Shown here piece by piece: positions 35,318 through 49,962 of a stretch of DNA of 54,072 nucleotides. The stretch is from Syntrophobacterales bacterium Delta_01 (lineage in GTDB: Bacteria > Desulfobacterota > Syntrophobacteria > Syntrophobacterales > Syntrophobacteraceae). A program made the translations under genes and the position numbers. Positions within the stretch are counted from its first letter, which is position 1. The number at the start of each line of letters is the position of its first letter. The stretch spans positions 1 to 54,072 of the forward strand of contig LUZZ01000012.1 of NCBI GenBank assembly GCA_001603845.1. The letters are read 5' to 3'. Below the pieces are notes generated by a model. It saw nothing but the letters and a program-made list of their open reading frames with translations, had not been told where the DNA came from and made no database searches.

Positions 35318-37249
35318 TCACTTGACGGCCTCGGCCGATGTCCCGTAAAGGGCGTTTCCAAGGCTGCGAAGCGGCCGAAGCCCGTAAAGCCTCCCCTGGC
35401 GATACACAATCACCTGCTCCTTGTCGCAAAAAGACCTTCCGAACTTTTCCCGGATCAGCATTTCACCGCGGTTCAGGACCGAGCATACGGAGCAGTCGTT
35501 CCGCGATGCGGCCATATTCAGGAACAAAAGGGGAAGATGAATTCCCATCTTCGAGCAGGCACGGACCAGGTCGGCGGTCTCCTGGAAGGCCATCTCCGTG
35601 AGGATGGCCACGGCCACCAGGGCAGAGCGGCCGGGATCGGCCAGGATCGATTTCATGTGCTTGAGTTCCTGCGATATCTTCACGAGCCGCCGGGAGATTC
35701 CGGGCAGGCGGAACACCGCCCTGTACTTCAGGAACAGTCCAAAAAAGACTTTGAGCCACTGGTCGATGAGTTCAGGGAGTTCGAGCAGCCTGATGAGGTG
35801 GCCGGTTGGAGCGGAATCGATGACGACGATGTCGTATTTCCCCTCCGCCAAAGCTCCCATGACCCCGGTGAGCGCGATGACCTCATCGGTGCCGGGCGGT
35901 GAGAGGTCGAAAATCCTATCCATCACCTCGTGGTCGAAAGCCAGTTCGAAGTCGGGCAAAGCCGATTTAAGGAATCGCTCGCAGTCCGTTCTGTATTGCA
36001 TCTTCAGGGAGTCGAACTCCGCCCGGGCGTCGATTTCCACTGCGGTGAGCCGAGGAGATACCCGTACAGGGAGAGGTCCCACCTCGATTCCCAGGCAGGC
36101 CGACAGAGAATGGGCGGGATCGACGGAAACGAGGAAGACTTTCCTGGCGCCTTGGTCCTCCGCCAGGTGCAGGGCCGTTGCGCATGCGAGCGTGGTCTTG
36201 CCCGTTCCGCCCTTTCCGGCAAAAAGCAAGAGTTCCTTTGCATGCAGCGCGGTCCTTACCCCTTCCACGTGAACCGGCGCTTCATGGCAGGTACCGCAGG
36301 AGATCGGCGTCACCCTGGAAATTTTCGTCACCCCCGTCCAGAACGAGTAAAGGTTTTCCCCGCCGGGGGCCTCGGGCGCATGGAAGGGCATTCCCCAAAG
36401 GACACACCCGGAAAAAGCGTCCGAACTTGCAATTGCGTTGAGGTTTTCACTCTGCAGGGCGTAAATGTTCGAACACAGCGGGCAGGAGCCCGGAGACCGG
36501 AGCTTGTTGACCACGATATCGGCAACCGGCGCTCCCAAGCCGTGGAGACGCTCCACCAATGCCGTCGTCTCGCTGATGCTCAATTCCTCGGCGAGCATGA
36601 CCGGCACGAAACACGAACGAACCGGGTCCCGGAGCAGGGTGTGTACCCGGTTGACCCTCTCGGACAGTTCCATGAGGAACCGGTCAAGCTCGTCCGGGCG
36701 GTAGGAACCGCTGAATGCCCTTTTCATGTAACGGTGTTTGGCCAGGAGCGCATCCAATGCCTTAAGCCACCCGCGGAGCAAATCGGGCATTTCCAGGAGC
36801 CGTATCGTGTGCCCGGTCGGCGCGGTATCCACGATGATGCGGTCATGGCCGGAATCGTCCACCCACCGGGAGATTTCGAGTAGCGCCGTGAGTTCATCCA
36901 TGCCCGGAAGGGAAAGGTCCAGGAAGCCGTTGATGTCTTCTTCGTCCAGGAACGTGCCGCGCAACGCAATCTCCCGGAGTTTGCGGCTGTGCTCGGCCTG
37001 GAATGCCGCCAGGCATTTTCGTGCATCCAGCTCCATGATCTCCAGGTTGGCGGGAAGATGGGCGTCGGCGAGGCTGTCGGTCAACGAGTGAGCGGGATCG
37101 GTGGAAAGGAGCAGGAAGGATTTCCCCGGAGAACCCACCGCCGAATGAAGGGCCGTCGCCGCGGCACAGGTGGTCTTCCCGACTCCGCCCTTCCCCCCGA
37201 AAAGCAACAGGCGCAGACCGGAATCCTGCAGAAAGGAGGGCTCGGTCAC
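35318..37249 (-). CDS. fused tandem ArsA/Get3(TRC40)-family P-loop ATPase (pseudo-dimer) embedded in the gvp operon
   Basis: Two modules, each with GKGG(V/T)GKTT, DPAHS, D(T/S)APTGH.IRLL and a downstream CxxC (CPLC, CSVC). The GTG start overlaps the gvpG stop (GTGA). Confidence 0.85.
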   Translation of the reverse strand: MTEPSFLQDSGLRLLLFGGKGGVGKTTCAAATALHSAVGSPGKSFLLLSTDPAHSLTDSLADAHLPANLEIMELDARKCLAAFQAEHSRKLREIALRGTFLDEEDINGFLDLSLPGMDELTALLEISRWVDDSGHDRIIVDTAPTGHTIRLLEMPDLLRGWLKALDALLAKHRYMKRAFSGSYRPDELDRFLMELSERVNRVHTLLRDPVRSCFVPVMLAEELSISETTALVERLHGLGAPVADIVVNKLRSPGSCPLCSNIYALQSENLNAIASSDAFSGCVLWGMPFHAPEAPGGENLYSFWTGVTKISRVTPISCGTCHEAPVHVEGVRTALHAKELLLFAGKGGTGKTTLACATALHLAEDQGARKVFLVSVDPAHSLSACLGIEVGPLPVRVSPRLTAVEIDARAEFDSLKMQYRTDCERFLKSALPDFELAFDHEVMDRIFDLSPPGTDEVIALTGVMGALAEGKYDIVVIDSAPTGHLIRLLELPELIDQWLKVFFGLFLKYRAVFRLPGISRRLVKISQELKHMKSILADPGRSALVAVAILTEMAFQETADLVRACSKMGIHLPLLFLNMAASRNDCSVCSVLNRGEMLIREKFGRSFCDKEQVIVYRQGRLYGLRPLRSLGNALYGTSAEAVK

Positions 37250-37506: not shown

Positions 37507-38320
37507 TCCGTGTTCCCCCTCGGTTCGGCAGGCCTTTCCGGGACGCCGTCGCGAGCGGCGGCGGACGGAAGTCTCGTTTTCCCCCGGCACGGGGGCTGAG
37601 CCGGATATCGACAAAGTTGTGGGGCGCCCAGGGGCCGTTGTAGTCGAACGCAAAGCTGTTATCGAAAAGCTTTGCCGCGTCGAACACGCGCTGCTCGAAC
37701 TCCGGCAGTTTCCCTCGCTCTACCAGGCAGGCCACGTTCATCACTTCGCGCTCGTTTCTCGGGCTGTTCCGTTTGGTTTCGGCGCAACACGCCGCGAGCA
37801 CAGTCTCGACGTTATCGGCGTGGACCTCCCGGTCTGCAGTGAGGATTCGCTCAAAAACACGCCCGATTTCGATCTTGTCCGCCCTGGTCGGTTCGCTCCG
37901 GCTGCCGAAAAAGCGGTCGCGCACGGCACGCAGCTCGGAATGGGTAAGAACGAAGTACTCGAAAATGTCCGGCACGTCCCACGTTACACGGAGCCCCATT
38001 TCCACCTTGTCCGCAACGCGCTGCAGTTGCTCGCAAAAGGCGGTCCGGTTGCGCGAGAGGATTTTTTGAACCGCCGCGGGGCCGTCCGCAACGATGCCGA
38101 AGCTCATGGGCAAGGGCGTGGATTCAGCCATGAGTTTGCCGAGGACTTCCTGGTGGGCCGCCAGGTTGCGGCGTTCGGGGCGGATTTCCATCTCCGATAC
38201 GTCGCTGACCACGGCCGCGATCACGCCGTCGGAGATCGTATAGACACTGCCGCCGCCGATGCCGAACGGGCCGTAGGTCCGCTCACCGGCACTTATGACG
38301 GCATAAAGATATCTTCCCAT
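37490..38320 (-). CDS. GvpF/GvpL-family gas vesicle protein (paralogue 1)
   Basis: GRYLYAVISAGE...GVIAAVVSDV...RRNLAAHQEVL...FDYNGPWAPHNF. The start is 38320 or 38344. Overlaps the gvpG start by 17 nt. Confidence 0.88.
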   Translation of the reverse strand: MGRYLYAVISAGERTYGPFGIGGGSVYTISDGVIAAVVSDVSEMEIRPERRNLAAHQEVLGKLMAESTPLPMSFGIVADGPAAVQKILSRNRTAFCEQLQRVADKVEMGLRVTWDVPDIFEYFVLTHSELRAVRDRFFGSRSEPTRADKIEIGRVFERILTADREVHADNVETVLAACCAETKRNSPRNEREVMNVACLVERGKLPEFEQRVFDAAKLFDNSFAFDYNGPWAPHNFVDIRLSPRAGGKRDFRPPPLATASRKGLPNRGGTRNVYRR

Positions 38321-38375
38321 GCTTCCTGTCTTTCTTCCCGCCATGTCTACAGCATCCTTTCAGCAGGCCCGGGCG

Positions 38376-38576
38376 CTACGGCTGGTCGGAGGTCCCCTTG
38401 TCGGCAGGAGGGGCCTCAAGCCTTTGATACAAGTGAAGGGATTTCAGTTTGCCCTGCTCCATCCTGATCTCCAGGAGCCTGCCGCATACGTAGCACTTTG
38501 CCTGCCCTTCGTAATCGGCATACACCTCTTCATCGAGTTCCAGCTTGTGGCCACACGAAAGACAGTTGATCTTCAT
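38376..38576 (-). CDS. zinc-ribbon miniprotein (unknown function)
   Basis: 66 aa with two CxxC pairs (CLSCG ... CYVCG). The ATG overlaps the stop of the upstream ORF (ATGA). Confidence 0.6.
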   Translation of the reverse strand: MKINCLSCGHKLELDEEVYADYEGQAKCYVCGRLLEIRMEQGKLKSLHLYQRLEAPPADKGTSDQP

Positions 38577-38815
38577 CTCCGGTTCTCCTTGCTCCTATGC
38601 TTGCCTTCCGCCCTGTTGCCGCCGCCGAGGTGCCGGGACCACAGGCGCGCGAGCCACGCCCGCCGCATCTGCCTTACTGAAAGGGCTGCATTCTCGAAAA
38701 AGATGCGTCCCTTATCGATTTGCACCAGCGGCAGCCCCGTGGACGGGAAACAGGCATGCAAGCCCTTGATGTTTCGGCCGGTACGGATGTGAGCGGAACT
38801 TTTGAGAGTGAGCAT
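38573..38815 (-). CDS. hypothetical 80-aa protein
   Basis: ATG 38815 preceded by GGGGGAAGG. GC-rich third codon positions. Basic C-terminus. No recognisable family. Confidence 0.45.
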   Translation of the reverse strand: MLTLKSSAHIRTGRNIKGLHACFPSTGLPLVQIDKGRIFFENAALSVRQMRRAWLARLWSRHLGGGNRAEGKHRSKENRR

Positions 38816-38916
38816 GGTCCTTCCCCCGGTGCAAAAAGTATAAAAGACGCGGGAGGCGAGTGATATTTCCCCGGCCCGCGAACATCGGCGCGGATCGGAT
38901 TGTCTATTGAAATTCC

Positions 38917-39243
38917 TCAATATTTGAGCCTGAAGCCCGCCGTCTCGTTTTGGGCCGGCCGGGTTCCGGACTCTCCGGCCTGCGGGACGAAGGGGTTCAC
39001 GCTCCTATCTTCCCTAACAACTTCCAGAATGGCCGCCATTTCGATTTCAATGTCCAGGAGGCGAGCGTCTATGTTCTTTACCCGGCTCATTGCGCTTTCC
39101 CTTTCTTTCGTGCGCCGGAACTTTTCCATTTCGAGGGAACACAGCCTCATGAACGCTTTGTATGGGAGGATCGCCTCTTGTGGCCTCCCCGAGTGGGAGC
39201 GAATGTCTTGCAGGCCTTTTACGGGCCTTACAGGAATGGGCAT
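38917..39243 (-). CDS. hypothetical 108-aa protein directly downstream of gvpN
   Basis: AAGGAGGAAG sits between the gvpN stop (39257) and ATG 39243. Charged helical core LEMEKFRRTKERESAMSRVKNIDARLLDIEIEMAAI. Confidence 0.6.
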   Translation of the reverse strand: MPIPVRPVKGLQDIRSHSGRPQEAILPYKAFMRLCSLEMEKFRRTKERESAMSRVKNIDARLLDIEIEMAAILEVVREDRSVNPFVPQAGESGTRPAQNETAGFRLKY

Positions 39244-39256
39244 GTTCTTCCTCCTT

Positions 39257-40306
39257 CTATTGCTTTTGCGCCGCCGCCTGTGGATGCCTCGCGCCCCCTC
39301 CGGGACGCTGCCCGCAAACCTTCTCGATGATTTCATCGACCTTTTGCAGCATGATGGACTGACCGTCGCGCGTAACCTTGGCGGTATCCGTGGTGAGAAC
39401 GTCGCGGCAAACCCACCGGAACACGGGATTGTCCGCCTGCGCCCTGTCGCCGCGGAGTGCAAGGACCCTGGCGACCACGATACAGGCCCGGATGGTGGGA
39501 CGGTGGTTGTTTACGCCCAGGGAGCGCAACTCTCTCACGATGTCCACGATGGTTGCGGCATCCGTTCGCGGGATGTTCGATTTGGCCGTCACAATCTGGA
39601 TTTCGGTCTCGCGATCGTAATGCTCCAGGTTGATGGTGATGAGCCTGTCCAAGAGGGCGTCCTGTGTCTTGTGCACCCCGGCGTACTCTTCCGGGTTGGA
39701 GGTAAAGATCGCCGTGAAGTCGGGATGAACCTCGAGATATCCCTCCCCTGATCTTCGCAGTTTCGGCAAGTTCAGGATGCGTTCCGAGAGCACGCTGAGA
39801 AAAGCGTTGTTTGCCTCGGGCCTCGAACGGTTGAACTCGTCGTAGATCAGCGTATCGCCGTTCTGGCAGGCCATGGTGAGCCGGTTGTCCACCCAGAAGC
39901 TCTTCATCTCCTCTTCCGTTTTCAAAACAGAGTGGATGAAATTGTCTATCAATTTCGACTTGCGGTAGCCGGCATCGCGCCCCACAAGATCGGAGCTTCC
40001 AAACTCATCGTCGCCGTGAATGAGGGTGACCGGCCGGCCGAGCTGGGCTGCGACGTGGAATGCCAGCGTGGTCTTCCCCGTTCCCGCGGGGCCCGAAAAA
40101 TGGACCGGGTAGCCCGCCGCGATGTAGGCCAGCGCACGCTCCGTCACGTGTTGCACGTACGGGGTGGAGACGAAGCCTTCGCCGGCCTCCGGCAGGATGA
40201 TGTCTCCTTCGGGCTGAACTCTTATCGTTTCGGCGGACAGGACTCTGAGGTTTTCTTTTTGCATCTTCCCATTGCTCCATTCGCGCGATTCGGGTTGCGT
40301 TTCCAT
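39257..40306 (-). CDS. gvpN: gas vesicle protein GvpN (MoxR-like AAA+ ATPase)
   Basis: 349 aa from ATG 40306. Walker A HFSGPAGTGKTT, Walker B LIYDEFNR. GvpN-typical length and context. Confidence 0.92.
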   Translation of the reverse strand: METQPESREWSNGKMQKENLRVLSAETIRVQPEGDIILPEAGEGFVSTPYVQHVTERALAYIAAGYPVHFSGPAGTGKTTLAFHVAAQLGRPVTLIHGDDEFGSSDLVGRDAGYRKSKLIDNFIHSVLKTEEEMKSFWVDNRLTMACQNGDTLIYDEFNRSRPEANNAFLSVLSERILNLPKLRRSGEGYLEVHPDFTAIFTSNPEEYAGVHKTQDALLDRLITINLEHYDRETEIQIVTAKSNIPRTDAATIVDIVRELRSLGVNNHRPTIRACIVVARVLALRGDRAQADNPVFRWVCRDVLTTDTAKVTRDGQSIMLQKVDEIIEKVCGQRPGGGARHPQAAAQKQ

Positions 40307-40644
40307 TACAAAGGCACCCATCCACGGCCCCGGCAGCGCAGGCATGCCATGGCGGAAGCCGAGCGGTCGTCGCCGCTCCCCCCACATTCCGGGCATCTCC
40401 GGACAGGACCGGCGGGCGCGGGCACAAACCCCTTGCCCCCGCAAACGGTGCAGGTGAGGGTCTTGACGGCCCCGGTGCCCCTGCAGTGGGCACACCGCAC
40501 GGAACCTTCCCGTACGGAGACGACCTTCCTTCCCCCGCAAACGCAGCAGGTGGATCGCCAGGACATGATGCCGAAGGGGTCCCTCCCGCTGCCGCCGCAG
40601 AAGGAGCACGAAACTCGAACGGTTCCTGTGCGCTCGTCCGCCAT
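40306..40644 (-). CDS. stand-alone DnaJ-CR-type zinc-finger protein (6 x CxxCxGxG)
   Basis: CSFCGGSG, CCVCGGRK, CAHCRGTG, CTVCGGKG, CPECGGSG and CLRCRGRG within 112 aa. The TAA stop overlaps the gvpN ATG (TAATG). Confidence 0.8.
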   Translation of the reverse strand: MADERTGTVRVSCSFCGGSGRDPFGIMSWRSTCCVCGGRKVVSVREGSVRCAHCRGTGAVKTLTCTVCGGKGFVPAPAGPVRRCPECGGSGDDRSASAMACLRCRGRGWVPL

Positions 40645-40691
40645 TCCATCCCCCCGTGGCCGTTGCCCGCTCGGATCGCCTTCGTGCCTGC

Positions 40692-41714
40692 TCAGTGAGA
40701 AAGCTTACCCTTTTTGGAGGGCTTCTTTTCCTCCCTGGCCTGGCTTTGTTCGGACGGAACAATCGCCTGGACGGGTTCCTGCACGGCCTGAGGTTCTACC
40801 TTTTGTTCAGCTTGGGGCTCCCCCTTCTGTTCAACTTGAGGCTCGACCTTTTGCTCAACTTGAGGTTCCACCTTCTGCTCGGCCTTACGCTCCGCATCAA
40901 ACCCTGCCTGCCACTCCGATTCCCGGCGATTTTGCTCCGTATCGGCCATCTCCCGTGGTTCGGCTTTTTGCAGGGGCAAAGAGCTGGGAGGCGTCGTACC
41001 CAACCACGCCCGGCGGGCGCCCGCAACTTCCGAGGCGAATTCCTGCCGCATGTCGGTCACCACTTTTTTCATTCCGGTTACAAAGGCCGCGCGGTCCGTC
41101 CTGGCTTTTTCGATCATGCTCCCGTAAGCCAGGCGCTGGTCCGCAAGTTCCCCGTGACAGCGGGTCTTCATTGCCGAAACGGCACCTTTTATGCCGGAGA
41201 TGAAGTTCAGGCGGCTTCTTCGGGAGCTTTTCGCCATTTGGGCGTTAGTATTCCTGACGTCTTTACGCATCCCGGCGACATTGGCTTTCAGATCGGAAAG
41301 AAACGCCAGCCGGTTTGCCCGGTCGCTTTTCGCCCCCTTTTGAAGCGAACGGCGAAAACCCGCCTGCATGCCCGATACCTCGGCCTTGAGGCCGGATACA
41401 AAAGCCGCTCTCTCCCGTTTGGTTTCCATGGACATTCTTGCGTGCGCGTCACGGATGGATGCAAGCTCCCCCCGAGACTCGGCCTTCAGCAGGGACACCG
41501 CGGTACCGATGCCGGCCAGAAACGCCAGCCGGTCGTTCCTGGTTGGCTTCGCCATCCGGGTATGAGCATTGTGAAACTCCTTCGCCATCGCCGCTACCGC
41601 CTCTCTGCGCTCCTTGGCGGAGCGGACGATATCATTCGAAAGTTCCCGGCGCGCTCCCCGCAAGCCGTTGATTTCACTGCGCAGGCGGGCCATGTCGTCT
41701 GTCAACATCCCCAT
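40692..41714 (-). CDS. GvpC-like repeat protein (putative outer-surface gas vesicle protein)
   Basis: 340 aa immediately after gvpA. Five R..R(L/A)(A/N)F(L/V/I).G(I/L/M)K..V..M units spaced 40/33/33/40 aa. Acidic/Pro-rich repetitive tail. Confidence 0.65.
   Translation of the reverse strand: MGMLTDDMARLRSEINGLRGARRELSNDIVRSAKERREAVAAMAKEFHNAHTRMAKPTRNDRLAFLAGIGTAVSLLKAESRGELASIRDAHARMSMETKRERAAFVSGLKAEVSGMQAGFRRSLQKGAKSDRANRLAFLSDLKANVAGMRKDVRNTNAQMAKSSRRSRLNFISGIKGAVSAMKTRCHGELADQRLAYGSMIEKARTDRAAFVTGMKKVVTDMRQEFASEVAGARRAWLGTTPPSSLPLQKAEPREMADTEQNRRESEWQAGFDAERKAEQKVEPQVEQKVEPQVEQKGEPQAEQKVEPQAVQEPVQAIVPSEQSQAREEKKPSKKGKLSH
40788..40883 (-). repeat. 4 x 24-nt imperfect in-frame tandem repeat encoding (K/A)(V/G)EPQ(V/A)EQ units
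   Basis: Units at 40788-40811, 40812-40835, 40836-40859 and 40860-40883. Confidence 0.85.
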
Positions 41715-41762
41715 CGTCTTCCTCCTTAGGGTTTGCCATCCGAGACCTCGGCTTCGGGTTCC

Positions 41763-41802
41763 CCGACGGGCAAGGGCTGCCGGGGCAGCCCTTGCTCGTC
41801 GG
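41763..41802 (-). promoter_or_regulatory. long GC-rich stem-loop between gvpA and the GvpC-like gene (attenuator/RNA-stabiliser candidate)
   Basis: ccgacg.gcaagggctgcc / ggcagcccttgc.cgtcgg, ~18 bp with one mismatch and a 4-nt loop. No U-tract. Confidence 0.55.
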
Positions 41803-41826
41803 CCGGGAACCCTTTGCAGGTCATAC

Positions 41827-42045
41827 TTAGGCTGGTGCAGCGGCGCTGGCCGTCAGACCAATGGCTTCAGCGTACTTCAAGTAGGTTTCGACCGAGGCGA
41901 TCACGACGCGGGCCTCAATGGACAGGAGTTCGATCCCGACCAAAGAAACCTTCGCCCAGGCATCGATCACGATGCCCTTGTCCAAAATGCGATCCACCAC
42001 TTCCGCCAGACTCGATGAATCTGTGGATTTCTGAACTTTTGCCAT
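41827..42045 (-). CDS. gvpA: major gas vesicle structural protein GvpA
   Basis: 72 aa. [55 protein letters not shown] is near-canonical GvpA. AAGGAGG lies 8 nt before the ATG. Confidence 0.97.
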
Positions 42046-42129
42046 GAATAAGACCTCCTTTGAAATTTTCAGATTCCATCAGCGCACTGATACCCTACAG
42101 CCTGTGGGCATGCCCACTGATTCGCCTTT

Positions 42130-42146
42130 AGCCAGAGACATGCCAA
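42130..42146 (-). promoter_or_regulatory. sigma-54 (-24/-12) promoter candidate for gvpA
   Basis: Minus-strand TTGGCATGTCTCTGGCT versus consensus YTGGCACG-N4-TTGCW, with GG and GC correctly spaced. About 85-100 nt upstream of the gvpA ATG. A sigma-54 activator is encoded in the locus. Confidence 0.6.
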
Positions 42147-42301
42147 GTTCAAAGGAAAGGTCAAGCCCTTGTAAGATACTTAAATTACAGGAAAACATAT
42201 CGGAGCCCCCCCATGAAGCCCCCCCCTTCGGTAAGGGCTGCCATGGACAAGGTTCCATATACTAGGGAAAAAAAACCCCTTTGCCCCTGCCGGGCGGACC
42301 C

Positions 42302-42685
42302 TCAGGCGCCATTGAGGGTTTCCATGATCCCCAGCACCTCGTCATTTTGAAAAGGTTTACTCATAAAGCCGCTGATCAGGCCGGATTCGAGGGCTTTCTG
42401 CACGCTCGCATCGTCTTTGTAAAAGTACCCCGAAATCATTACGATGCACGTTCCGGGGTGCAACAGGCGAATCTGTTTTGCCAGATCGAGCCCTTCCATA
42501 TCCGGCAGCTTGGCATCCAGGAAGACGAGGGGGAAACCGCTCGACACCATCAAATCAAGGGCCTCCCGGGCCGTGAGGGCAACCAGTGCATCGAAGCCCT
42601 TTTTCGTCAGTACATGATGCAGCACCCAGCACATGTCCGGCTCATCATCCACTATGAGAGACGTCGTCTTTCCGGGACTCATCAT
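42302..42685 (-). CDS. stand-alone response-regulator receiver (CheY-like)
   Basis: 127 aa. LIVDDEPDM...VFLDAKLPDMEGL...VMISGY...KPF receiver motifs. No output domain. Confidence 0.88.
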   Translation of the reverse strand: MMSPGKTTSLIVDDEPDMCWVLHHVLTKKGFDALVALTAREALDLMVSSGFPLVFLDAKLPDMEGLDLAKQIRLLHPGTCIVMISGYFYKDDASVQKALESGLISGFMSKPFQNDEVLGIMETLNGA

Positions 42686-42696
42686 CCATTACCTTT

Positions 42697-44175
42697 TCAA
42701 AACGCCGGGAGCGTAACGGTAAAGGTGCTCCCCCTGCCTTCCGTACTCTCTACCTCGATGGAGCCGAAATGGTGCCTCACGATCGAATAACAAATCGAGA
42801 GCCCCAGCCCGCTTCCCTTGCCTACCGGCGAAGTCGTGTAGAAGGGATCGAATATCTTGTCGATGTCCGCTTTGTGGATGCCGGTTCCCGTGTCCGCAAT
42901 GCGCACCACCGCTTCGTTTCCCTTTTTTTCCACGGAGATGTTCAGGCGTCCCCCGTCCGGCATGGAGTTGATCGCGTTCAAAAAGAGGTTCATGAACACC
43001 TGCTGCAGGAGGCTCTCGACGCCCGGGATCATCACGGGTTCCCGCAAAGCGCTGCAGCCCACCTCGATTTTCTGTATCTTGGCCTGGGTGGCGACCAGCG
43101 TGCGGGTTTCTTCCACCAAAGAGCACAAGTCTATCAAGGCGACGTTGGTCCTCGCCGACGGGTGTGCGAACCTCAGGAGGTTTTCGATGATGACCGAGGC
43201 CCTCTGGATCCCGGCGTGGATCTTATGCGCGCACTCTTTCCGAAACTCGGGAGTAATGTTTTCTTCCATGAGGAACTGGGCGCCCGAAGAGCAGATGGCG
43301 AGAGGATTTCGGATTTCGTGCGCTATGCCTCCGGCCATCACCCCCAGTGCCGCCAGCTTCTGCGACTGCAACAGTTGCATCTCCAGTTTGCGGCGCTCGG
43401 TGAGGTCCCTTCCCACCATGACAAGTCCCACCGACTGCGACGGCCCTTCCTTCAAAGGGGAAAGGACCCAATAGACGGGGATGAGGTCTCCCGTCTTTGT
43501 CAGCAGGTCCCATTCGGCCATGACGGAATTCTGCCGCGTGTTCATTTCGGCCAGGACCGACCTGACTTCCTGGTGACGGTCTTCGGTGCAGTATTCGACG
43601 AAATACTTCCCTTTGGTCTCATCGAAGGCATAGCCCGAGATACACTCGGCGGCCCTGTTCCATGAGAGTATCCTGCCCTCGGTGTCCGTGGAGATGATGA
43701 TGTCGTTGGCGCACTCGACCACGCTCGCAAGGTGCCGCTCCAGGCGGCGAACGTCCTCGCTCAGGCGGATCTGTTCCGTTACGTCCTCCATCAGGAGCAT
43801 GGCGCTCTCTACGGCCCCCTCCCACGAGAAAGGAAGGATGATGTAATAGTAGACTCGCATCGGCAGGGCGGGCGCCCTATAGGTCAAACGTTCCCCCGAT
43901 GTCGGGCGGTTTTCCCTGAAGACCTGCCGAATGCGCCGCCCTATGTCCATGCGTTCGAGAATGGTGGCCGGAAATACCCGCTCCAGGGGATGACCGACCG
44001 TATCGGACTTCGAGCGCTTGCTTTTCTCTAAAAAATTCCTGTTCGCGCTGACGATGCGCATCTCCCGGTCGATCAGCAGGACGGAACTCGGAATCGCGTC
44101 GAGAAGCATCGTGTAGAGCTTTTCGTGCCTTTCAAGGGAATCCCGGCTTGAGATTTCCCAACGATCAGTGTTCAT
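42697..44175 (-). CDS. PAS-domain sensor histidine kinase
   Basis: Two PAS-like segments (IVSANRNFL..., ILSWNRAAECISGY). H-box GIAHEIRNPL. HATPase N/G boxes (NLFLNAINSM, DTGTGI, GSGLGLSI). Confidence 0.9.
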   Translation of the reverse strand: MNTDRWEISSRDSLERHEKLYTMLLDAIPSSVLLIDREMRIVSANRNFLEKSKRSKSDTVGHPLERVFPATILERMDIGRRIRQVFRENRPTSGERLTYRAPALPMRVYYYIILPFSWEGAVESAMLLMEDVTEQIRLSEDVRRLERHLASVVECANDIIISTDTEGRILSWNRAAECISGYAFDETKGKYFVEYCTEDRHQEVRSVLAEMNTRQNSVMAEWDLLTKTGDLIPVYWVLSPLKEGPSQSVGLVMVGRDLTERRKLEMQLLQSQKLAALGVMAGGIAHEIRNPLAICSSGAQFLMEENITPEFRKECAHKIHAGIQRASVIIENLLRFAHPSARTNVALIDLCSLVEETRTLVATQAKIQKIEVGCSALREPVMIPGVESLLQQVFMNLFLNAINSMPDGGRLNISVEKKGNEAVVRIADTGTGIHKADIDKIFDPFYTTSPVGKGSGLGLSICYSIVRHHFGSIEVESTEGRGSTFTVTLPAF

Positions 44176-45890: not shown

Positions 45891-48029
45891 CTATGGCTTG
45901 TTGACTTCCTGCAGTGCGGCTTCGATATCTTCTGCCTCGATGAGCACGTGGACTTCGGCAGCGGGATTTTCCCGGAGGGCCTGGATGACGCGTCTGATGG
46001 CCCTGAGGCCGGCCAGGCTGCAAACCGACTCGATTTCTGCGCCGCTGAACCCCTCGGTCTTCAATGAGAGTTCCCGCGCGCTGATGCCGCCCGCAAGGGG
46101 TTTTTTGCGAAAATGTACGCTGAAAATCTTCTCCCGGTCTTCCCGGTTCGGAAGCGGGATTTCAATGATTTCGTCGAACCGGCCCGGCCTTGTGATCGCC
46201 GGATCGAGCATATCCGACCGATTCGTCGCACCGAGCACCAGGACTCCTTTCAACTCCTCGATGCCGTCGAGTTCGGTGAGGAACTGGCTGAGCACGCGTT
46301 CGGCCACATGGGAGTCTGAAGCGCCGCCGGCGCGCAAAGGAACCAGGGCATCGATTTCATCGAAAAAGAGGATGCAGGGCGATGCCTGCCTGGCCTTCCG
46401 GAACACCTCCCGCACTCCCCTTTCCGACTCCCCCACGTATTGTGACAGAAGAGCGGGGCCTTTGACCGCGATGAAGTTCACGTTGCTTTCGTTGGCTATC
46501 GCCTTGGCCAACAGGGTCTTGCCGCACCCCGGCGGGCCGAAAAGCAGAATGCCCTTGGGCGGTTTGATTCCGCCCTGCTCGAAGACCGCGGGGAACTGCA
46601 GGGGCCACTCGACGGCTTCGATCAGGCGGTCTTTGACCTCCGAGAGCCCGCCCACGTCCTCCCAGCTCAGGTCGGGCACTTCGACGAACACCTCGCGGAT
46701 GGCCGACGCCTCGACGTCTCGAAGCGCGGAGACAAAATCCCCCATGTGCACCTCGAGCTTTACGATCTGCTCGTAGGGGACGCTGGCCAGGGAAAAATCG
46801 ATGTCCGGCATGATGCGCCGCAGGGAACTCATGGCCGCTTCCCGGCAAAGCGACTCCAGGTCGGCGCCGACAAAACCGTGGGTAATCTCGGCGAGGTGTG
46901 CCAGGTCCACGTCCGGAGTCAACGGCATGCCGCGGCTGTGGATCTCCAGGATTTCAAGCCTCCCGTTCCGGTCGGGGATCGGAATGGCGATCTCCCTGTC
47001 GAACCGCCCGGGACGGCGCAGGGCCGGATCGAGAAGATGGGGGAGGTTGGTGGCCGCGATGACGATGAGGTTCTGGCGCCGGGTGAGTCCGTCCATGAGG
47101 GCCAGGAGCTGCGCCACCACCCGCTTTTCCACGTCCCCGATCACCCGCTCCCGCTTGGGGGCGATGGCGTCGATCTCGTCGAGGAAAATGATGCTGGGAC
47201 CCTTGCGGGCGGCTTCTTCGAAAATCTTTCGCAGGTGCGCTTCGCTCTCCCCGTAGAACTTGTGTATGATCTCGGGGCCGCCCACGGAAAAGAAATTCGC
47301 GTCGGTTTCATTGGCGATGGCCCGCGCGATGAGGGTCTTGCCGCATCCGGGAGGCCCGTGGAGCAGGACTCCTCTGGGCGCATCGATCCCCAACCGCTCG
47401 AACACCTCCGGATAGCGCAGCGGCAGTTCGATCATCTCCCGTATCCGGTGGAGCTGCGGCTTGAGCCCCCCGATATCCTCGTAGGACACCGTACCCGTGG
47501 CCCTTTCTTCCTGCGCTTTTCCAACCATGAGCACGGTGTTGGGAACGATCATAACGGGGCCCTTCGGGGTCGTGCTCTCCACCTTGAAATTGGCGGAACG
47601 GCTGCCGAACAGCGTGGCCCGGATGCGGTCTCCTTCAACAGCCGGCAGCCCGTCCAGCAGGCTGCCGATATACGCCAGGTCGCGATCCGCCGGCATGATG
47701 TCCGTCGGTGCGAGGATGACGCGTTCGGCGTGACGGCAGGCGATCCTGCTCACGGAAACGACCTCGTTGATTCCGGCCCCCGAGTTTTCCCTGGTCAGCC
47801 CGTCCAACTGCACCCACGACCGGCCTCTAATTTCCTTATAGGCCGGCATTGCCTTGCAGACGGTCTTCCGCTTTCCGGCGACTTCCACGATGTCGCCGAT
47901 CTCCGCCCCCAGCCTCTTCAGGTCTTCCGGGTCCATGCGCGCATAGGCGCGCCCGACGTCCTTGGGGAGGGCTTCGGTGACCTTCAGCTTGAGTTCCGTT
48001 TTTCTTGAGCCGTTCATAAGCACCACCAT
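45891..48029 (-). CDS. Cdc48/VAT-type double-ring AAA+ ATPase
   Basis: 712 aa. Cdc48-like N-domain (LKVTEALPKDVGRAYARMDPEDLKRLG...GDIVEV). Two AAA modules, each with GPPGCGKTL Walker A and a DEID Walker B. Confidence 0.92.
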   Translation of the reverse strand: MVVLMNGSRKTELKLKVTEALPKDVGRAYARMDPEDLKRLGAEIGDIVEVAGKRKTVCKAMPAYKEIRGRSWVQLDGLTRENSGAGINEVVSVSRIACRHAERVILAPTDIMPADRDLAYIGSLLDGLPAVEGDRIRATLFGSRSANFKVESTTPKGPVMIVPNTVLMVGKAQEERATGTVSYEDIGGLKPQLHRIREMIELPLRYPEVFERLGIDAPRGVLLHGPPGCGKTLIARAIANETDANFFSVGGPEIIHKFYGESEAHLRKIFEEAARKGPSIIFLDEIDAIAPKRERVIGDVEKRVVAQLLALMDGLTRRQNLIVIAATNLPHLLDPALRRPGRFDREIAIPIPDRNGRLEILEIHSRGMPLTPDVDLAHLAEITHGFVGADLESLCREAAMSSLRRIMPDIDFSLASVPYEQIVKLEVHMGDFVSALRDVEASAIREVFVEVPDLSWEDVGGLSEVKDRLIEAVEWPLQFPAVFEQGGIKPPKGILLFGPPGCGKTLLAKAIANESNVNFIAVKGPALLSQYVGESERGVREVFRKARQASPCILFFDEIDALVPLRAGGASDSHVAERVLSQFLTELDGIEELKGVLVLGATNRSDMLDPAITRPGRFDEIIEIPLPNREDREKIFSVHFRKKPLAGGISARELSLKTEGFSGAEIESVCSLAGLRAIRRVIQALRENPAAEVHVLIEAEDIEAALQEVNKP

Positions 48030-48035
48030 CCGCGT

Positions 48036-48572
48036 TCAGTGTTTCCCGCATTTGATTTCCACGATCCCGTGCTTGCAGGAGACCGAAATCTGGTCTTTTC
48101 GAAACGTGCCCGGAAGGAGTATCTCCTTGCGGTATTTCTTGTTTCCCCTCTGGGCCGAGAGAGTCAGAACATCGTCCACGAGGTCCAGTTGAACGTCTTC
48201 GGCCTCGATTCCGGGCATCTCCGCGACGATCAGCACGTGGTCCTCCTCTTCGAAAACATCCACCAGCGGTTCCCGGATCTCACGGACCACGGACTTGCCC
48301 GTCGCTTTGTCCTTGCCGATATTGCCGAAGGGCCGGACTTCGACTTCCTCCCCGCCAAGACCCACCTTGACGGAAAACCCGAAAATTCCCTTCCCCTCCT
48401 TCTTGCCGCCCTCCCATTGAAACTCGCCGCTCTTGGAGAGCTGCTCTCCTTTTTCAGCCAGATCGCTCAGCCTTTCCACAAGGTCGCTCAAGCCCCTGAA
48501 GATCCCTTCAATGCCTCCGCCGGCTTCTTCACCCTTTTTCGTACGTTTACCTTTCGTCATCTGTGTCTCCAC
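48036..48572 (-). CDS. Hsp20/alpha-crystallin family protein (GvpH-like position)
   Basis: 178 aa. C-terminal ACD: VDVFEEEDHVLIVAEMPGIEAEDVQLDLVDDVLTLSA...GIVEI. Confidence 0.85.
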   Translation of the reverse strand: METQMTKGKRTKKGEEAGGGIEGIFRGLSDLVERLSDLAEKGEQLSKSGEFQWEGGKKEGKGIFGFSVKVGLGGEEVEVRPFGNIGKDKATGKSVVREIREPLVDVFEEEDHVLIVAEMPGIEAEDVQLDLVDDVLTLSAQRGNKKYRKEILLPGTFRKDQISVSCKHGIVEIKCGKH

Positions 48573-49962
48573 CCGATTGGATTCCGTAGTGTTTTACTTT
48601 CGAAAAGATCGTCTTGTAGTCCACCTTGAGTATTCGGGCAGCCCTGGCCTTGTTCCCTCCGGTATGCTTCAACACCTCCCGGATGACCTCCCGCTCCAGG
48701 GCTTCCGTTCCCTGGCGTACCAACTCCTTCAAAGGCACCTCTTTCCATGCCGCCCGGAACTTATTTTGCGCAGGTTTCGGCACGGGCGGCTCCGCATCGG
48801 CAATGTCGAGATGCCCTTCGTTGATGAGGCGGTCGGCGACGAGGACGGCACGACGGATAACGGAGCGCAGTTGCCTCACGTTTCCGGGCCAGTTGTGCGC
48901 AACCAGCTTCTGGACGGCGCCCTCCGAGAACCCCTCCACCTTCTTGTGCAGTTCCCGGTTCGTTTTATCCAGGAAGAGCTTGGCAAGGTACGGGATGTCC
49001 TCCCTGCGCTCACGCAGGGGAGGAATGTTCAGCGTGAACTCGTTCAAGCGGAAGAAGAGGTCGAGTCGGAATGCTCCCGTCTTGGCCAGTTCCAGCAAGT
49101 CCCTGTTGGAGGCCGCAAGAAGGCGGACATCCACGGCAATGGGCTCCCGGGCGCCGACGGGGCTGGCTTTCTTTTCCTGGATCGCGCGAAGCAGCTTGGC
49201 CTGGGAACCCAGGGGCATGTTTGAAATCTCGTCCAGGAACAGGGTCCCGCCTCGCGCCACCTCGAATTTACCCGGCTTTCGGGCTACCGCTCCCGTAAAA
49301 GCCCCCCTTTCGTGGCCGAACAGCTCGCTTTCCAGAAGCGTTTCCGGTATCGACCCGCAATCGACCGGGACAAAAGGCCCGGTCCGCGGACTGGCCAGGT
49401 GGATGGCGCGGGCAACGAGCTCCTTTCCCGACCCCGTCTCTCCGTGAATGACCACGCTGAAATCGGAGCGCGCCACCAGATTGACATCGGAAATGAGGCG
49501 AGCGACCACGTCGCTGTGTCCCATGGTTTGCCGCAGGTGCGAGGCGTCCTGCTCATGGGCCGAAAGATGCTTTATCGTCTGTTTCAGCCTGCGCTCCGCC
49601 AACGCCCTGCGCACGACCCGGACGACTTCGTAGTGGTTGAACGGTTTGGCCAGGTAGTCGTGGGCCCCGGCCCTCATTGCCTCCACCGCCCCGGGGACGT
49701 CGGCATACCCGGTGATCATGATGACCGGAAGCTCAGGATGTTTTTCCTTGAGACTCCGCATTACCTGCATCCCGTCCATGCCCGGCATCTTGAAATCCAG
49801 AAGGAGGACGTCGGGTTCCTTGGATGTGATCGAATCGAGCGCCGCCGCCCCATGGTTGACCGTCTCGACTTCAAAACTCTCCTCCCTCATGAGACGGGCA
49901 AGTATCGAACAGTGGGCTTCCTCATCGTCGGCTACCAGGATCCTGGCTTCAAACTCACTCAT
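48547..49962 (-). CDS. sigma-54-dependent response regulator (REC-AAA+-Fis HTH, NtrC family)
   Basis: REC (ILVADDEE...LLLDFKMPGMDG). AAA+ with GETGSGKE and the ESELFGHERGAFTGA (GAFTGA) motif. C-terminal HTH GGNKARAARILKVDYKT. Confidence 0.93.
   Translation of the reverse strand: MSEFEARILVADDEEAHCSILARLMREESFEVETVNHGAAALDSITSKEPDVLLLDFKMPGMDGMQVMRSLKEKHPELPVIMITGYADVPGAVEAMRAGAHDYLAKPFNHYEVVRVVRRALAERRLKQTIKHLSAHEQDASHLRQTMGHSDVVARLISDVNLVARSDFSVVIHGETGSGKELVARAIHLASPRTGPFVPVDCGSIPETLLESELFGHERGAFTGAVARKPGKFEVARGGTLFLDEISNMPLGSQAKLLRAIQEKKASPVGAREPIAVDVRLLAASNRDLLELAKTGAFRLDLFFRLNEFTLNIPPLRERREDIPYLAKLFLDKTNRELHKKVEGFSEGAVQKLVAHNWPGNVRQLRSVIRRAVLVADRLINEGHLDIADAEPPVPKPAQNKFRAAWKEVPLKELVRQGTEALEREVIREVLKHTGGNKARAARILKVDYKTIFSKVKHYGIQSGGDTDDER

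Follow-up and report, generated by a model that had tools for sequence, protein, structure and literature searches.

The window analysed here, a contig of 54,072 nucleotides from Syntrophobacterales bacterium Delta_01 (LUZZ01000012.1), carries on its minus strand a typical proteobacterial-type gas-vesicle (gvp) gene cluster, within which a small gene between a GvpC-like gene and gvpN encodes a stand-alone zinc-finger protein of the DnaJ cysteine-rich (CR) type. This zinc-finger gene runs from 40306 to 40644 (-), including its TAA stop codon (40306-40308), and was recognised as an open reading frame (ORF) with an ATG start, by matches to Pfam PF00684 and PF15777, by its homologues and by AlphaFold2 modelling. 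Its product of 112 amino acids (11.6 kDa, pI 9.3) contains 13 cysteines, and directly 5' of the ATG, at 40645..40655 (-), there is a purine-rich stretch, GGGGGGATGGA, which reads as a Shine-Dalgarno-like sequence.

A regular expression finds six CxxCxGx[G/K] units in the protein, starting at residues 13, 33, 51, 65, 84 and 101, all of them encoded on the minus strand. Repeat 1 (CSFCGGSG, residues 13-20, 40585..40608) is followed by the family signature DPFGIMSW, and repeat 2 (CCVCGGRK, residues 33-40, 40525..40548) is predicted to share a zinc ion with it; repeat 3 (CAHCRGTG, residues 51-58, 40471..40494) is separated from repeat 4 (CTVCGGKG, residues 65-72, 40429..40452) by a CxxC-to-CxxC spacing of 10 residues; and repeat 5 (CPECGGSG, residues 84-91, 40372..40395) is followed by the conserved GDDxSAxAM and then by repeat 6 (CLRCRGRG, residues 101-108, 40321..40344). 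Five of the six units conform to the strict CxxCxGxG pattern, the second ending in lysine in the window and in glycine in most homologues.

The Pfam model DnaJ_CXXCXGXG (PF00684) is just passed at 34.3 bits against a cut-off of 32.7, relatives of the window protein scoring 41-64 bits, and the Pfam Anti-TRAP model (PF15777) is also just passed at 35.5 bits against a cut-off of 32, with its best stretch at residues 83-111. Neither Pfam nor NCBIfam finds a J domain (PF00226) or a DnaJ C-terminal domain in the protein, and the bacterial DnaJ model TIGR02349 scores far below its cut-off (26.8 against 377). The NCBIfam equivalog for the anti-TRAP protein RtpA (NF058604) also falls below its cut-off (35.9 against 65), its best stretch being residues 49-75, there is no match to BSD2_CRD (PF25436) at E <= 0.01, and none of the Gvp models of Pfam or NCBIfam (for GvpA/J/M, C, F/L, G, H, K, N, O and V-Z) matches the protein. 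By its motif and its Pfam score the window protein is a CR-type zinc finger, not a DnaJ, not an anti-TRAP and not demonstrably a BSD2; the first-pass annotation, which had described a stand-alone CR-type zinc finger of six repeats with neither J domain nor C-terminal domain, is borne out by Pfam, by NCBIfam and by a profile match described below.

A word-indexed search with the zinc-finger protein returned 221 homologues, the best 120 of which align over nearly the full length at 58-76% identity and E <= 2e-35. When 38 homologues were aligned the 12 cysteines of the CxxC pairs all proved invariant, as did most glycines of the motifs, and there is conservation outside the cysteines in three motifs: DPFGIMSW after repeat 1, AVKT(F/L)TC between repeats 3 and 4, and GDDxSAxAM after repeat 5. 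Across seven orthologues the uncorrected ratio of nonsynonymous to synonymous differences per site (pN/pS) is 0.27-0.41, with pN of 0.16-0.24 and pS of 0.47-0.70, synonymous sites being near saturation, and the ORF is under purifying selection. Furthermore the GC content of third codon positions is higher in the zinc-finger frame (0.78) than in any other frame.

The possibility that the ORF is open by chance in GC-rich DNA, or belongs to a longer gvpN (ORF 39257-40762), draws on the many overlapping open frames of this GC-rich region and on the absence of the exact product from a large protein collection, but it is already refuted by the comparative data and its probability is practically nil, given hundreds of full-length homologues with invariant motif residues, a frame under purifying selection, GvpN homologues that start at the equivalent of Met15 of the window GvpN, a gvpN frame that is closed upstream in many relatives, and a counterpart in Desulfobacca acetoxidans that has been called and annotated (WP_013706738). 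It is almost certain that the ORF is a real gene and a member of the gvp cluster. An extended gvpN of 501 amino acids was rejected, as GvpN homologues start far downstream of 40762 and the upstream frame is so often closed, and the earlier view that this extension is an artefact was correct; an overlapping ORF of 214 amino acids and the plus-strand ORFs were set aside as by-products of high GC.

Homologues of the gene have mostly been called, under labels that include 'hypothetical protein', 'CR-type domain-containing protein', 'YuiA family protein' and 'DnaJ-class molecular chaperone'. The exact 112-aa window product is absent from a collection of 15 billion proteins in which the GvpN of the same contig is present, and it appears that the gene was not called on the window contig, unlike its homologues elsewhere. 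The expectation that such genes are often unannotated therefore holds for the window, the product of which is missing from the collection, but not for most of the homologues, which are called and carry a hypothetical or DnaJ-class label.

In a scan of one genome per species 192 genomes were found to contain a relative of the zinc finger, of which 80, carrying the close subfamily, were retrieved and examined. These 80 genomes span around eight phyla, and the hundreds of bacteria that have the gene in their gvp clusters are mostly uncultured. The carriers are for the most part Thermodesulfobacteriota (Syntrophobacteraceae, Desulfomonile, Desulfobaccales including the isolate Desulfobacca acetoxidans, and Syntrophaceae), and they also include Acidobacteriota, Planctomycetota including Brocadiaceae, Chloroflexota, Calditrichota, Nitrospinia, Ca. 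Hatepunaea and Gammaproteobacteria, the last including the isolate Marinobacter gelidimuriae. In 71 of the 77 close loci where it could be tested gvpN lies within 700 nt downstream of the zinc-finger gene, the exceptions being mostly Acidobacteria in which the gene for a small zinc ribbon sits between the two; gvpA lies upstream in all but one of 72 loci (71/72), a GvpC-like gene lies directly upstream in 63 of 72, and the zinc-ribbon gene, which in the window encodes 66 amino acids, is present in 59 of 62.

The family extends well beyond these genomes. A HMMER search of 1.84 billion representative proteins matched 1619 clusters (50% identity) at E <= 1e-3, 379 at E <= 1e-10 and 25 at E <= 1e-30, and the matched clusters are mostly of 100-170 amino acids with six repeats. 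A sister subfamily comprises 762 clusters at 90% identity, the members of which are 40-59% identical to one another and have few named sources, among them a Hydrothermarchaeales archaeon, Dehalococcoidia and Omnitrophota. All seven of the small six-repeat members of this subfamily that were sampled are in gvp clusters, either adjoining gvpN or one gene away from it, and when linkage was counted in 80 metagenome loci gvpN was found within 1.5 kb downstream in every testable locus (56/56) and gvpA upstream in 30 of 32. Within gvp clusters the link between the zinc-finger gene and gvpN holds for both subfamilies, which are deeply diverged from each other. The first-pass annotation had made its proposal depend on conservation of the ORF next to gvpN in related genomes, and such conservation is what the counts reveal in the close loci (71 of 77) and in the sister loci (56 of 56).

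Some loci contain more than one such gene. A second six-repeat paralogue, which is absent from the window, is present further downstream in around 20 of the 80 close loci, between the gene that follows gvpN and the zinc-ribbon gene; it has an N-terminal helix and DPKY in place of DPFG (examples are L017:5401-5793, L042:11916-12407, L044:7170-7553 and L061:9512-10123, with around 16 others). The distant locus L087 contains three six-repeat genes together with two that are gvpN-like. Longer members were searched for informative domain fusions, and Pfam gave only more CR repeats; a protein of 451 amino acids and 16 repeats that matched the profile (P0235) is encoded beside an extracytoplasmic function (ECF) sigma factor and was rejected as belonging to a different family. 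Two distant members, P0179 and P0244, have an extra N-terminal domain of around 80 amino acids before the CR repeats, which in P0179 faintly matches the Pfam family Rpc34 of RNA polymerase III (E = 0.0047).

The junction with gvpN is probably less intimate than had been supposed. The gvpN gene encodes an AAA+ ATPase (TIGR02640, 350 bits against a cut-off of 267) and runs at 39257..40264 (-) from its conserved start at Met15, an alternative, non-conserved start being the ATG at 40306. The latter forms part of a TAATG stop/start overlap at 40304..40308 (-), in which base 40306 is common to the zinc-finger TAA (40308-40306) and to an ATG in the gvpN frame (40306-40304), and it is from this ATG that the public gene call for the contig takes its GvpN of 349 amino acids (39257-40306, -). 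All 29 of the closest GvpN homologues start (M-x-x-E-N-L...) at the equivalent of window Met15, the ATG of which (40264-40262) lies 41 nt past the zinc-finger stop with a GGAG 10 nt upstream, and judging by the sequences the first 14 residues of the called GvpN are probably not translated. In relatives the spacer between the zinc-finger gene and gvpN is usually 40-130 nt (65 nt in D. acetoxidans), with an overlap in only a few loci, and translational coupling was rejected as a conserved feature. Of the earlier claim that the two genes are coupled through TAATG the shared base stands, whilst the coupling itself is doubtful; the overlap is present and probably incidental, and is probably not a functional junction with gvpN.

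In the order of the minus strand the gvp cluster of the window begins with genes for a sigma-54 activator, an Hsp20-like protein, a CDC48-like double AAA+ protein, two GvpF/L paralogues, a PAS histidine kinase and a response regulator (45891-48029, 48036-48572, 48547-49962, 42697-44175 and 42302-42685, all on the minus strand). It continues with gvpA (41827..42045 (-); PF00741, NF006874), the first gene of the structural operon, then with the gene for a GvpC-like repeat protein of 340 amino acids (40692..41714 (-)), the stop codon of which is 47 nt before the zinc-finger ATG, and then with the zinc-finger gene, gvpN and a gene for a protein of 108 amino acids (38917..39243 (-)). There follow the gene for the 66-aa zinc ribbon, gvpF/L, gvpG, a gene for a tandem ArsA-like ATPase, gvpK and a gene of the GvpA/J type. 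No Pfam family matches the 340-aa GvpC-like protein, which has internal repeats of around 35 amino acids (R..R.AF..G.K..V..M) and a C-terminal tail with tandem EQKVEPQV units. Promoter-like and terminator-like sites are no commoner in 38300-42400 than in shuffled sequence, and since the genes are co-oriented and such signals between them are not above chance the zinc-finger gene is probably co-transcribed with gvpA, the GvpC-like gene and gvpN.

Three further genes of the cluster merit mention. The 108-aa gene after gvpN is conserved, with tblastn matches in nearly all loci, and in Methylocella and Spartinivicinus the gene after gvpN encodes a related protein that resembles its product at the C-terminal end; by its position it is possibly GvpV-like. 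The 66-aa zinc ribbon (38376..38576 (-)), of the form CxxC...CxxC, matches Pfam Zn_ribbon_4 below the cut-off and is a second unnamed zinc protein of these gvp clusters. The tandem-domain ArsA/Get3-like ATPase of 643 amino acids (35318-37249 (-)) lies inside the cluster and is present in 24 of 52 related loci, an association between ArsA and gvp genes that was noted in 2010 (PMC2963123).

A profile of the zinc-finger family aligns with the DnaJ CR structure 1exk_A at E = 4.4e-6, profile positions 13-77 falling on chain residues 12-77, such that repeats 1-4 align with the complete 1EXK domain in the same order. The AlphaFold2 model made from the 38-sequence alignment has a predicted local distance difference test (pLDDT) score of 92 and a predicted template modelling (pTM) score of 0.81, with four beta-strands at residues 8-12, 41-45, 81-83 and 109-111 that flank repeats 1-2 and 5-6. 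Foldseek matched this full model to BSD2, anti-TRAP and DnaJ CR and to nothing else in the PDB, all at non-significant E-values, the top match being BSD2 (6ekb, E = 0.25); one two-repeat unit superposes on anti-TRAP at 0.5-1.6 A, and on DnaJ CR (1exk) there is no global superposition, the root-mean-square deviation (rmsd) being ~14 A. When residues 1-48 were modelled alone (pLDDT 88 over the repeat blocks) strands 8-12 and 41-45 persisted, and they are therefore predicted to pair with each other, with repeats 1 and 2 forming a closed hairpin. This fragment matches BSD2 (6ekb and 6ekc) with a Foldseek probability of 0.96-0.99 and a query-normalised TM-score of 0.56-0.61, and superposes on anti-TRAP at 1.5-1.7 A over 36-37 residues.

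Because the hairpin persists in the fragment and superposes on anti-TRAP, the models suggest that the zinc-finger protein is made of three tandem anti-TRAP/BSD2-like zinc ribbons, each formed by neighbouring repeats (1+2, 3+4 and 5+6), and the nested zinc topology of DnaJ (1+4 and 2+3) is disfavoured by the model of the 1-48 fragment and by the rmsd of 14 A. The protein had earlier been given a DnaJ-like zinc centre in which six repeats would bind three zinc ions, and whilst three zinc ions fit the models the predicted pairing of neighbours is at odds with the DnaJ arrangement. It is highly probable that the protein binds zinc. From homology and the AlphaFold2 model the 12 invariant cysteines would hold three zinc ions, the three zinc ribbons would give a rigid, disulfide-free scaffold, and DPFGIMSW, AVKTxTC and GDDxSAxAM may form a protein-binding surface upon it.

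Comparison with known systems helps to place the family. With the CR domain of DnaJ (PF00684, 1EXK) the window protein has the CxxCxGxG repeat in common, and like it would be a zinc-stabilised protein-binding module; unlike type I DnaJ/Hsp40 it lacks the J domain, the G/F region and the C-terminal domains and has six repeats rather than four, it is predicted to share zinc between neighbouring repeats where DnaJ nests them, and its family is found in gvp clusters. BSD2 (6EKB, 6EKC) is likewise a small stand-alone CxxCxGxG protein, an assembly factor of plastid Rubisco, and is the top Foldseek match of both the full model and the 1-48 fragment, at E-values that are not significant (0.065-0.25). 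It is dedicated to building one large homo-oligomeric assembly, as the window family would be too. In contrast to the window protein, however, BSD2 binds two zincs with four repeats, comes from the plastids of eukaryotes and has RbcL8 as its client, and its own model (PF25436) does not match the window protein. Anti-TRAP (RtpA of Bacillus) uses two neighbouring CxxCxGxG motifs per zinc, as predicted for the window protein, and acts purely by binding another protein, which is the mode that we propose here; however it is a protein of 53 amino acids with one zinc that forms trimers and dodecamers and regulates tryptophan genes, whereas the window protein would have three two-repeat units in one chain and is encoded in a gvp operon. 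Finally, the zinc finger shares its clusters with GvpF/L, GvpH/Hsp20, GvpN and GvpV, which are proposed helpers for the hydrophobic proteins of the GvpA family (PMC9501494, PMC4982088). It differs from these in having no sequence relationship with any of them, and the model clusters of Halobacterium, Nostoc and Methylocella lack it.

Given this context it is very likely that the zinc-finger protein is an accessory factor of gas-vesicle assembly, and by analogy with the DnaJ CR domain, BSD2 and anti-TRAP it most likely works by binding another protein. The reading that we favour, to which we would give about an even chance, is that it acts alongside GvpN as a holdase or adaptor. Its clients would be the aggregation-prone subunits of the GvpA family and/or the GvpC-like protein, and it would present these to the GvpN AAA+ ATPase, or dock GvpN, during extension of the shell. 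GvpA is a hydrophobic protein whose proteotoxicity is avoided only when assembly factors are already present (PMC12848028), and GvpN is an AAA+ ATPase needed for bicone enlargement (PMC9501494, PMC4982088); in haloarchaea GvpN and GvpO bind the C-terminal part of GvpC (PMC9372576, PMC9501494). The same clusters encode other proteins of chaperone type, namely the Hsp20-like GvpH, the CDC48-like AAA+ protein and the ArsA/Get3-like ATPase. Furthermore in two independent metagenomic proteins, P0020 and P0122, the first 23-47 residues of a GvpC-like protein are fused to a six-repeat zinc finger; these fusions were probably made by deletions between adjacent genes, and they hint that the GvpC-like protein and the zinc finger act together.

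A number of observations weigh against a holdase or adaptor of GvpN. A BLAST search with a low-complexity filter found no homologue of the zinc finger on 26 plasmids that bear gvpN, which are those of Halobacterium and other haloarchaea, Methylocella, Methylosinus, Spartinivicinus, Nostoc and Octadecabacter; in the two closest of these clusters (Methylocella and Spartinivicinus) a GvpC-like or small gene is followed directly by gvpN, and a hidden Markov model (HMM) scan of all ORFs in these two plasmid gvp loci found no homologue either. The gene is dispensable for gas vesicles in general, and as GvpN, with at least 7994 clusters at 90% identity, far outnumbers the roughly 1000-1600 clusters of the zinc finger, the latter is present in only a minority of gvp clusters, by a very rough estimate between a tenth and a fifth of them. 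The Foldseek E-values (>= 0.065) are not significant, which is due to the small size of the fold, a J domain was looked for within 10 kb in the window and at 85 close loci and not found, and genomic adjacency cannot separate a chaperone from a regulator or a structural component.

In gvp clusters of the sister subfamily one GvpF/L paralogue has a C-terminal J domain, which scores 38-39 bits against Pfam DnaJ and retains an intact HPD in five of five cases (L088:3551-4612, L092:4864-5919, L096:14999-16003, L097:13559-14575 and L098:15447-16484), six further loci being found by tblastn. GvpF has been reported to bind GvpA (PMC9501494), and a J-domain GvpF suggests that Hsp70 is recruited to GvpF-GvpA. 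It is possible, if on the unlikely side, that in many gas-vesicle clusters, those of uncultured bacteria and of some archaea, the stand-alone CR zinc finger and the J-domain GvpF together amount to a dismantled DnaJ, which would recruit the housekeeping Hsp70 (DnaK) and deliver GvpA-family subunits to the shell; the zinc finger would then be the client-holding part, the J domain being carried in the sister lineage by the GvpF that binds GvpA.

The protein might instead be built into the vesicle. It could be a minor structural or anchoring component of the vesicle surface alongside the GvpC-like protein, for example a docking site for GvpN, and would then correspond, as a separate protein, to the C-terminal zinc finger of haloarchaeal GvpC. 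The GvpC of Halobacterium has CRVCGEYYQAITEPHLQTH at its end, its C-terminal part binds GvpN and GvpO, and this finger is likewise encoded between the GvpC repeats and gvpN (gvpA-gvpC-gvpN), as the zinc-finger gene has a GvpC-like gene on one side and gvpN on the other in 63 of 72 loci and is joined to a GvpC-like N-terminus in P0020 and P0122. However the haloarchaeal motif (CxxC-x12-HxxxH) is C2H2-like and not CxxCxGxG, with a single site that is fused to GvpC, so that homology with it was rejected and the likeness is one of position and function only, and in several clusters of the sister subfamily the zinc-finger gene is duplicated or lies apart from the upstream proteins; we consider such a structural role rather unlikely.

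It would seem less likely again that the protein is an inhibitor or timer resembling anti-TRAP, which would block GvpN or one of the regulators (GvrA, B or C) and tune vesicle growth without aiding folding. The Pfam Anti-TRAP model is passed (35.5 against 32), two-repeat units superpose on anti-TRAP at 0.5-1.7 A, and the extra N-terminal domain of P0179 and P0244, with its faint Rpc34 match in P0179 (E = 0.0047), could be taken to point towards regulation. Against this the RtpA equivalog scores well short of its cut-off (35.9 against 65), the Rpc34 match is far below any cut-off, the window protein has six repeats where anti-TRAP has two, and the gene lies in the structural operon rather than in the gvrA-gvrC regulatory operon.

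A redox or thiol switch, in which the 12-13 cysteines would act as a zinc-releasing sensor or a thiol-disulfide oxidoreductase and link vesicles to oxygen or redox state, is very unlikely. Thirteen cysteines in 112 amino acids is a very high content, the hosts are mainly anaerobes (Thermodesulfobacteriota, anammox Planctomycetota and Omnitrophota), and the CR domain of DnaJ and some plant CR proteins have disulfide isomerase activity in vitro. The family is however also present in the aerobic isolate Marinobacter gelidimuriae (L042), the strict CxxCxGxG geometry with its invariant glycines points to structural zinc sites, and the cluster has no thioredoxin-like partner.

In the full-text searchable literature, which excludes subscription-only papers, no paper was found that describes gvp clusters with either a J domain or a zinc finger of the CR type. 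The zinc finger goes unmentioned where Tashiro et al. (2016) compare the cluster of Desulfomonile tiedjei, and the earlier statement that it is not among the known Gvp proteins agrees with both the searchable literature and the Gvp models of Pfam and NCBIfam. Whilst the CR-type motif itself is known, what is probably new is a six-repeat, probably three-zinc, stand-alone CR family that is specific to gas-vesicle clusters.

Gas vesicles, which are buoyancy organelles, have also been developed into acoustic reporter genes. How they are assembled is still poorly understood, and in E. coli most natural clusters do not work (PMC10344784, PMC12848028). The zinc finger represents an unnamed but widespread family, with members in the genomes of 192 species and in more than 1000 sequence clusters, and is a concrete candidate partner for GvpN. 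The clusters that contain it expose a toolkit of chaperone-like proteins, comprising CR zinc fingers, J-domain GvpF, Hsp20, a CDC48-like ATPase and ArsA/Get3, which is open to tests in the cultivable Desulfobacca acetoxidans and Marinobacter gelidimuriae. If our reading is true the family would be one of a small number of stand-alone CR-type zinc fingers in bacteria for which the cellular context is defined, and its three-zinc tandem architecture would be new relative to solved structures. Should the zinc finger and the J-domain GvpF indeed be the parts of a dismantled DnaJ, gas-vesicle biogenesis would be an Hsp70-assisted process, and this module could be the missing piece when clusters fail to assemble in E. 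coli.

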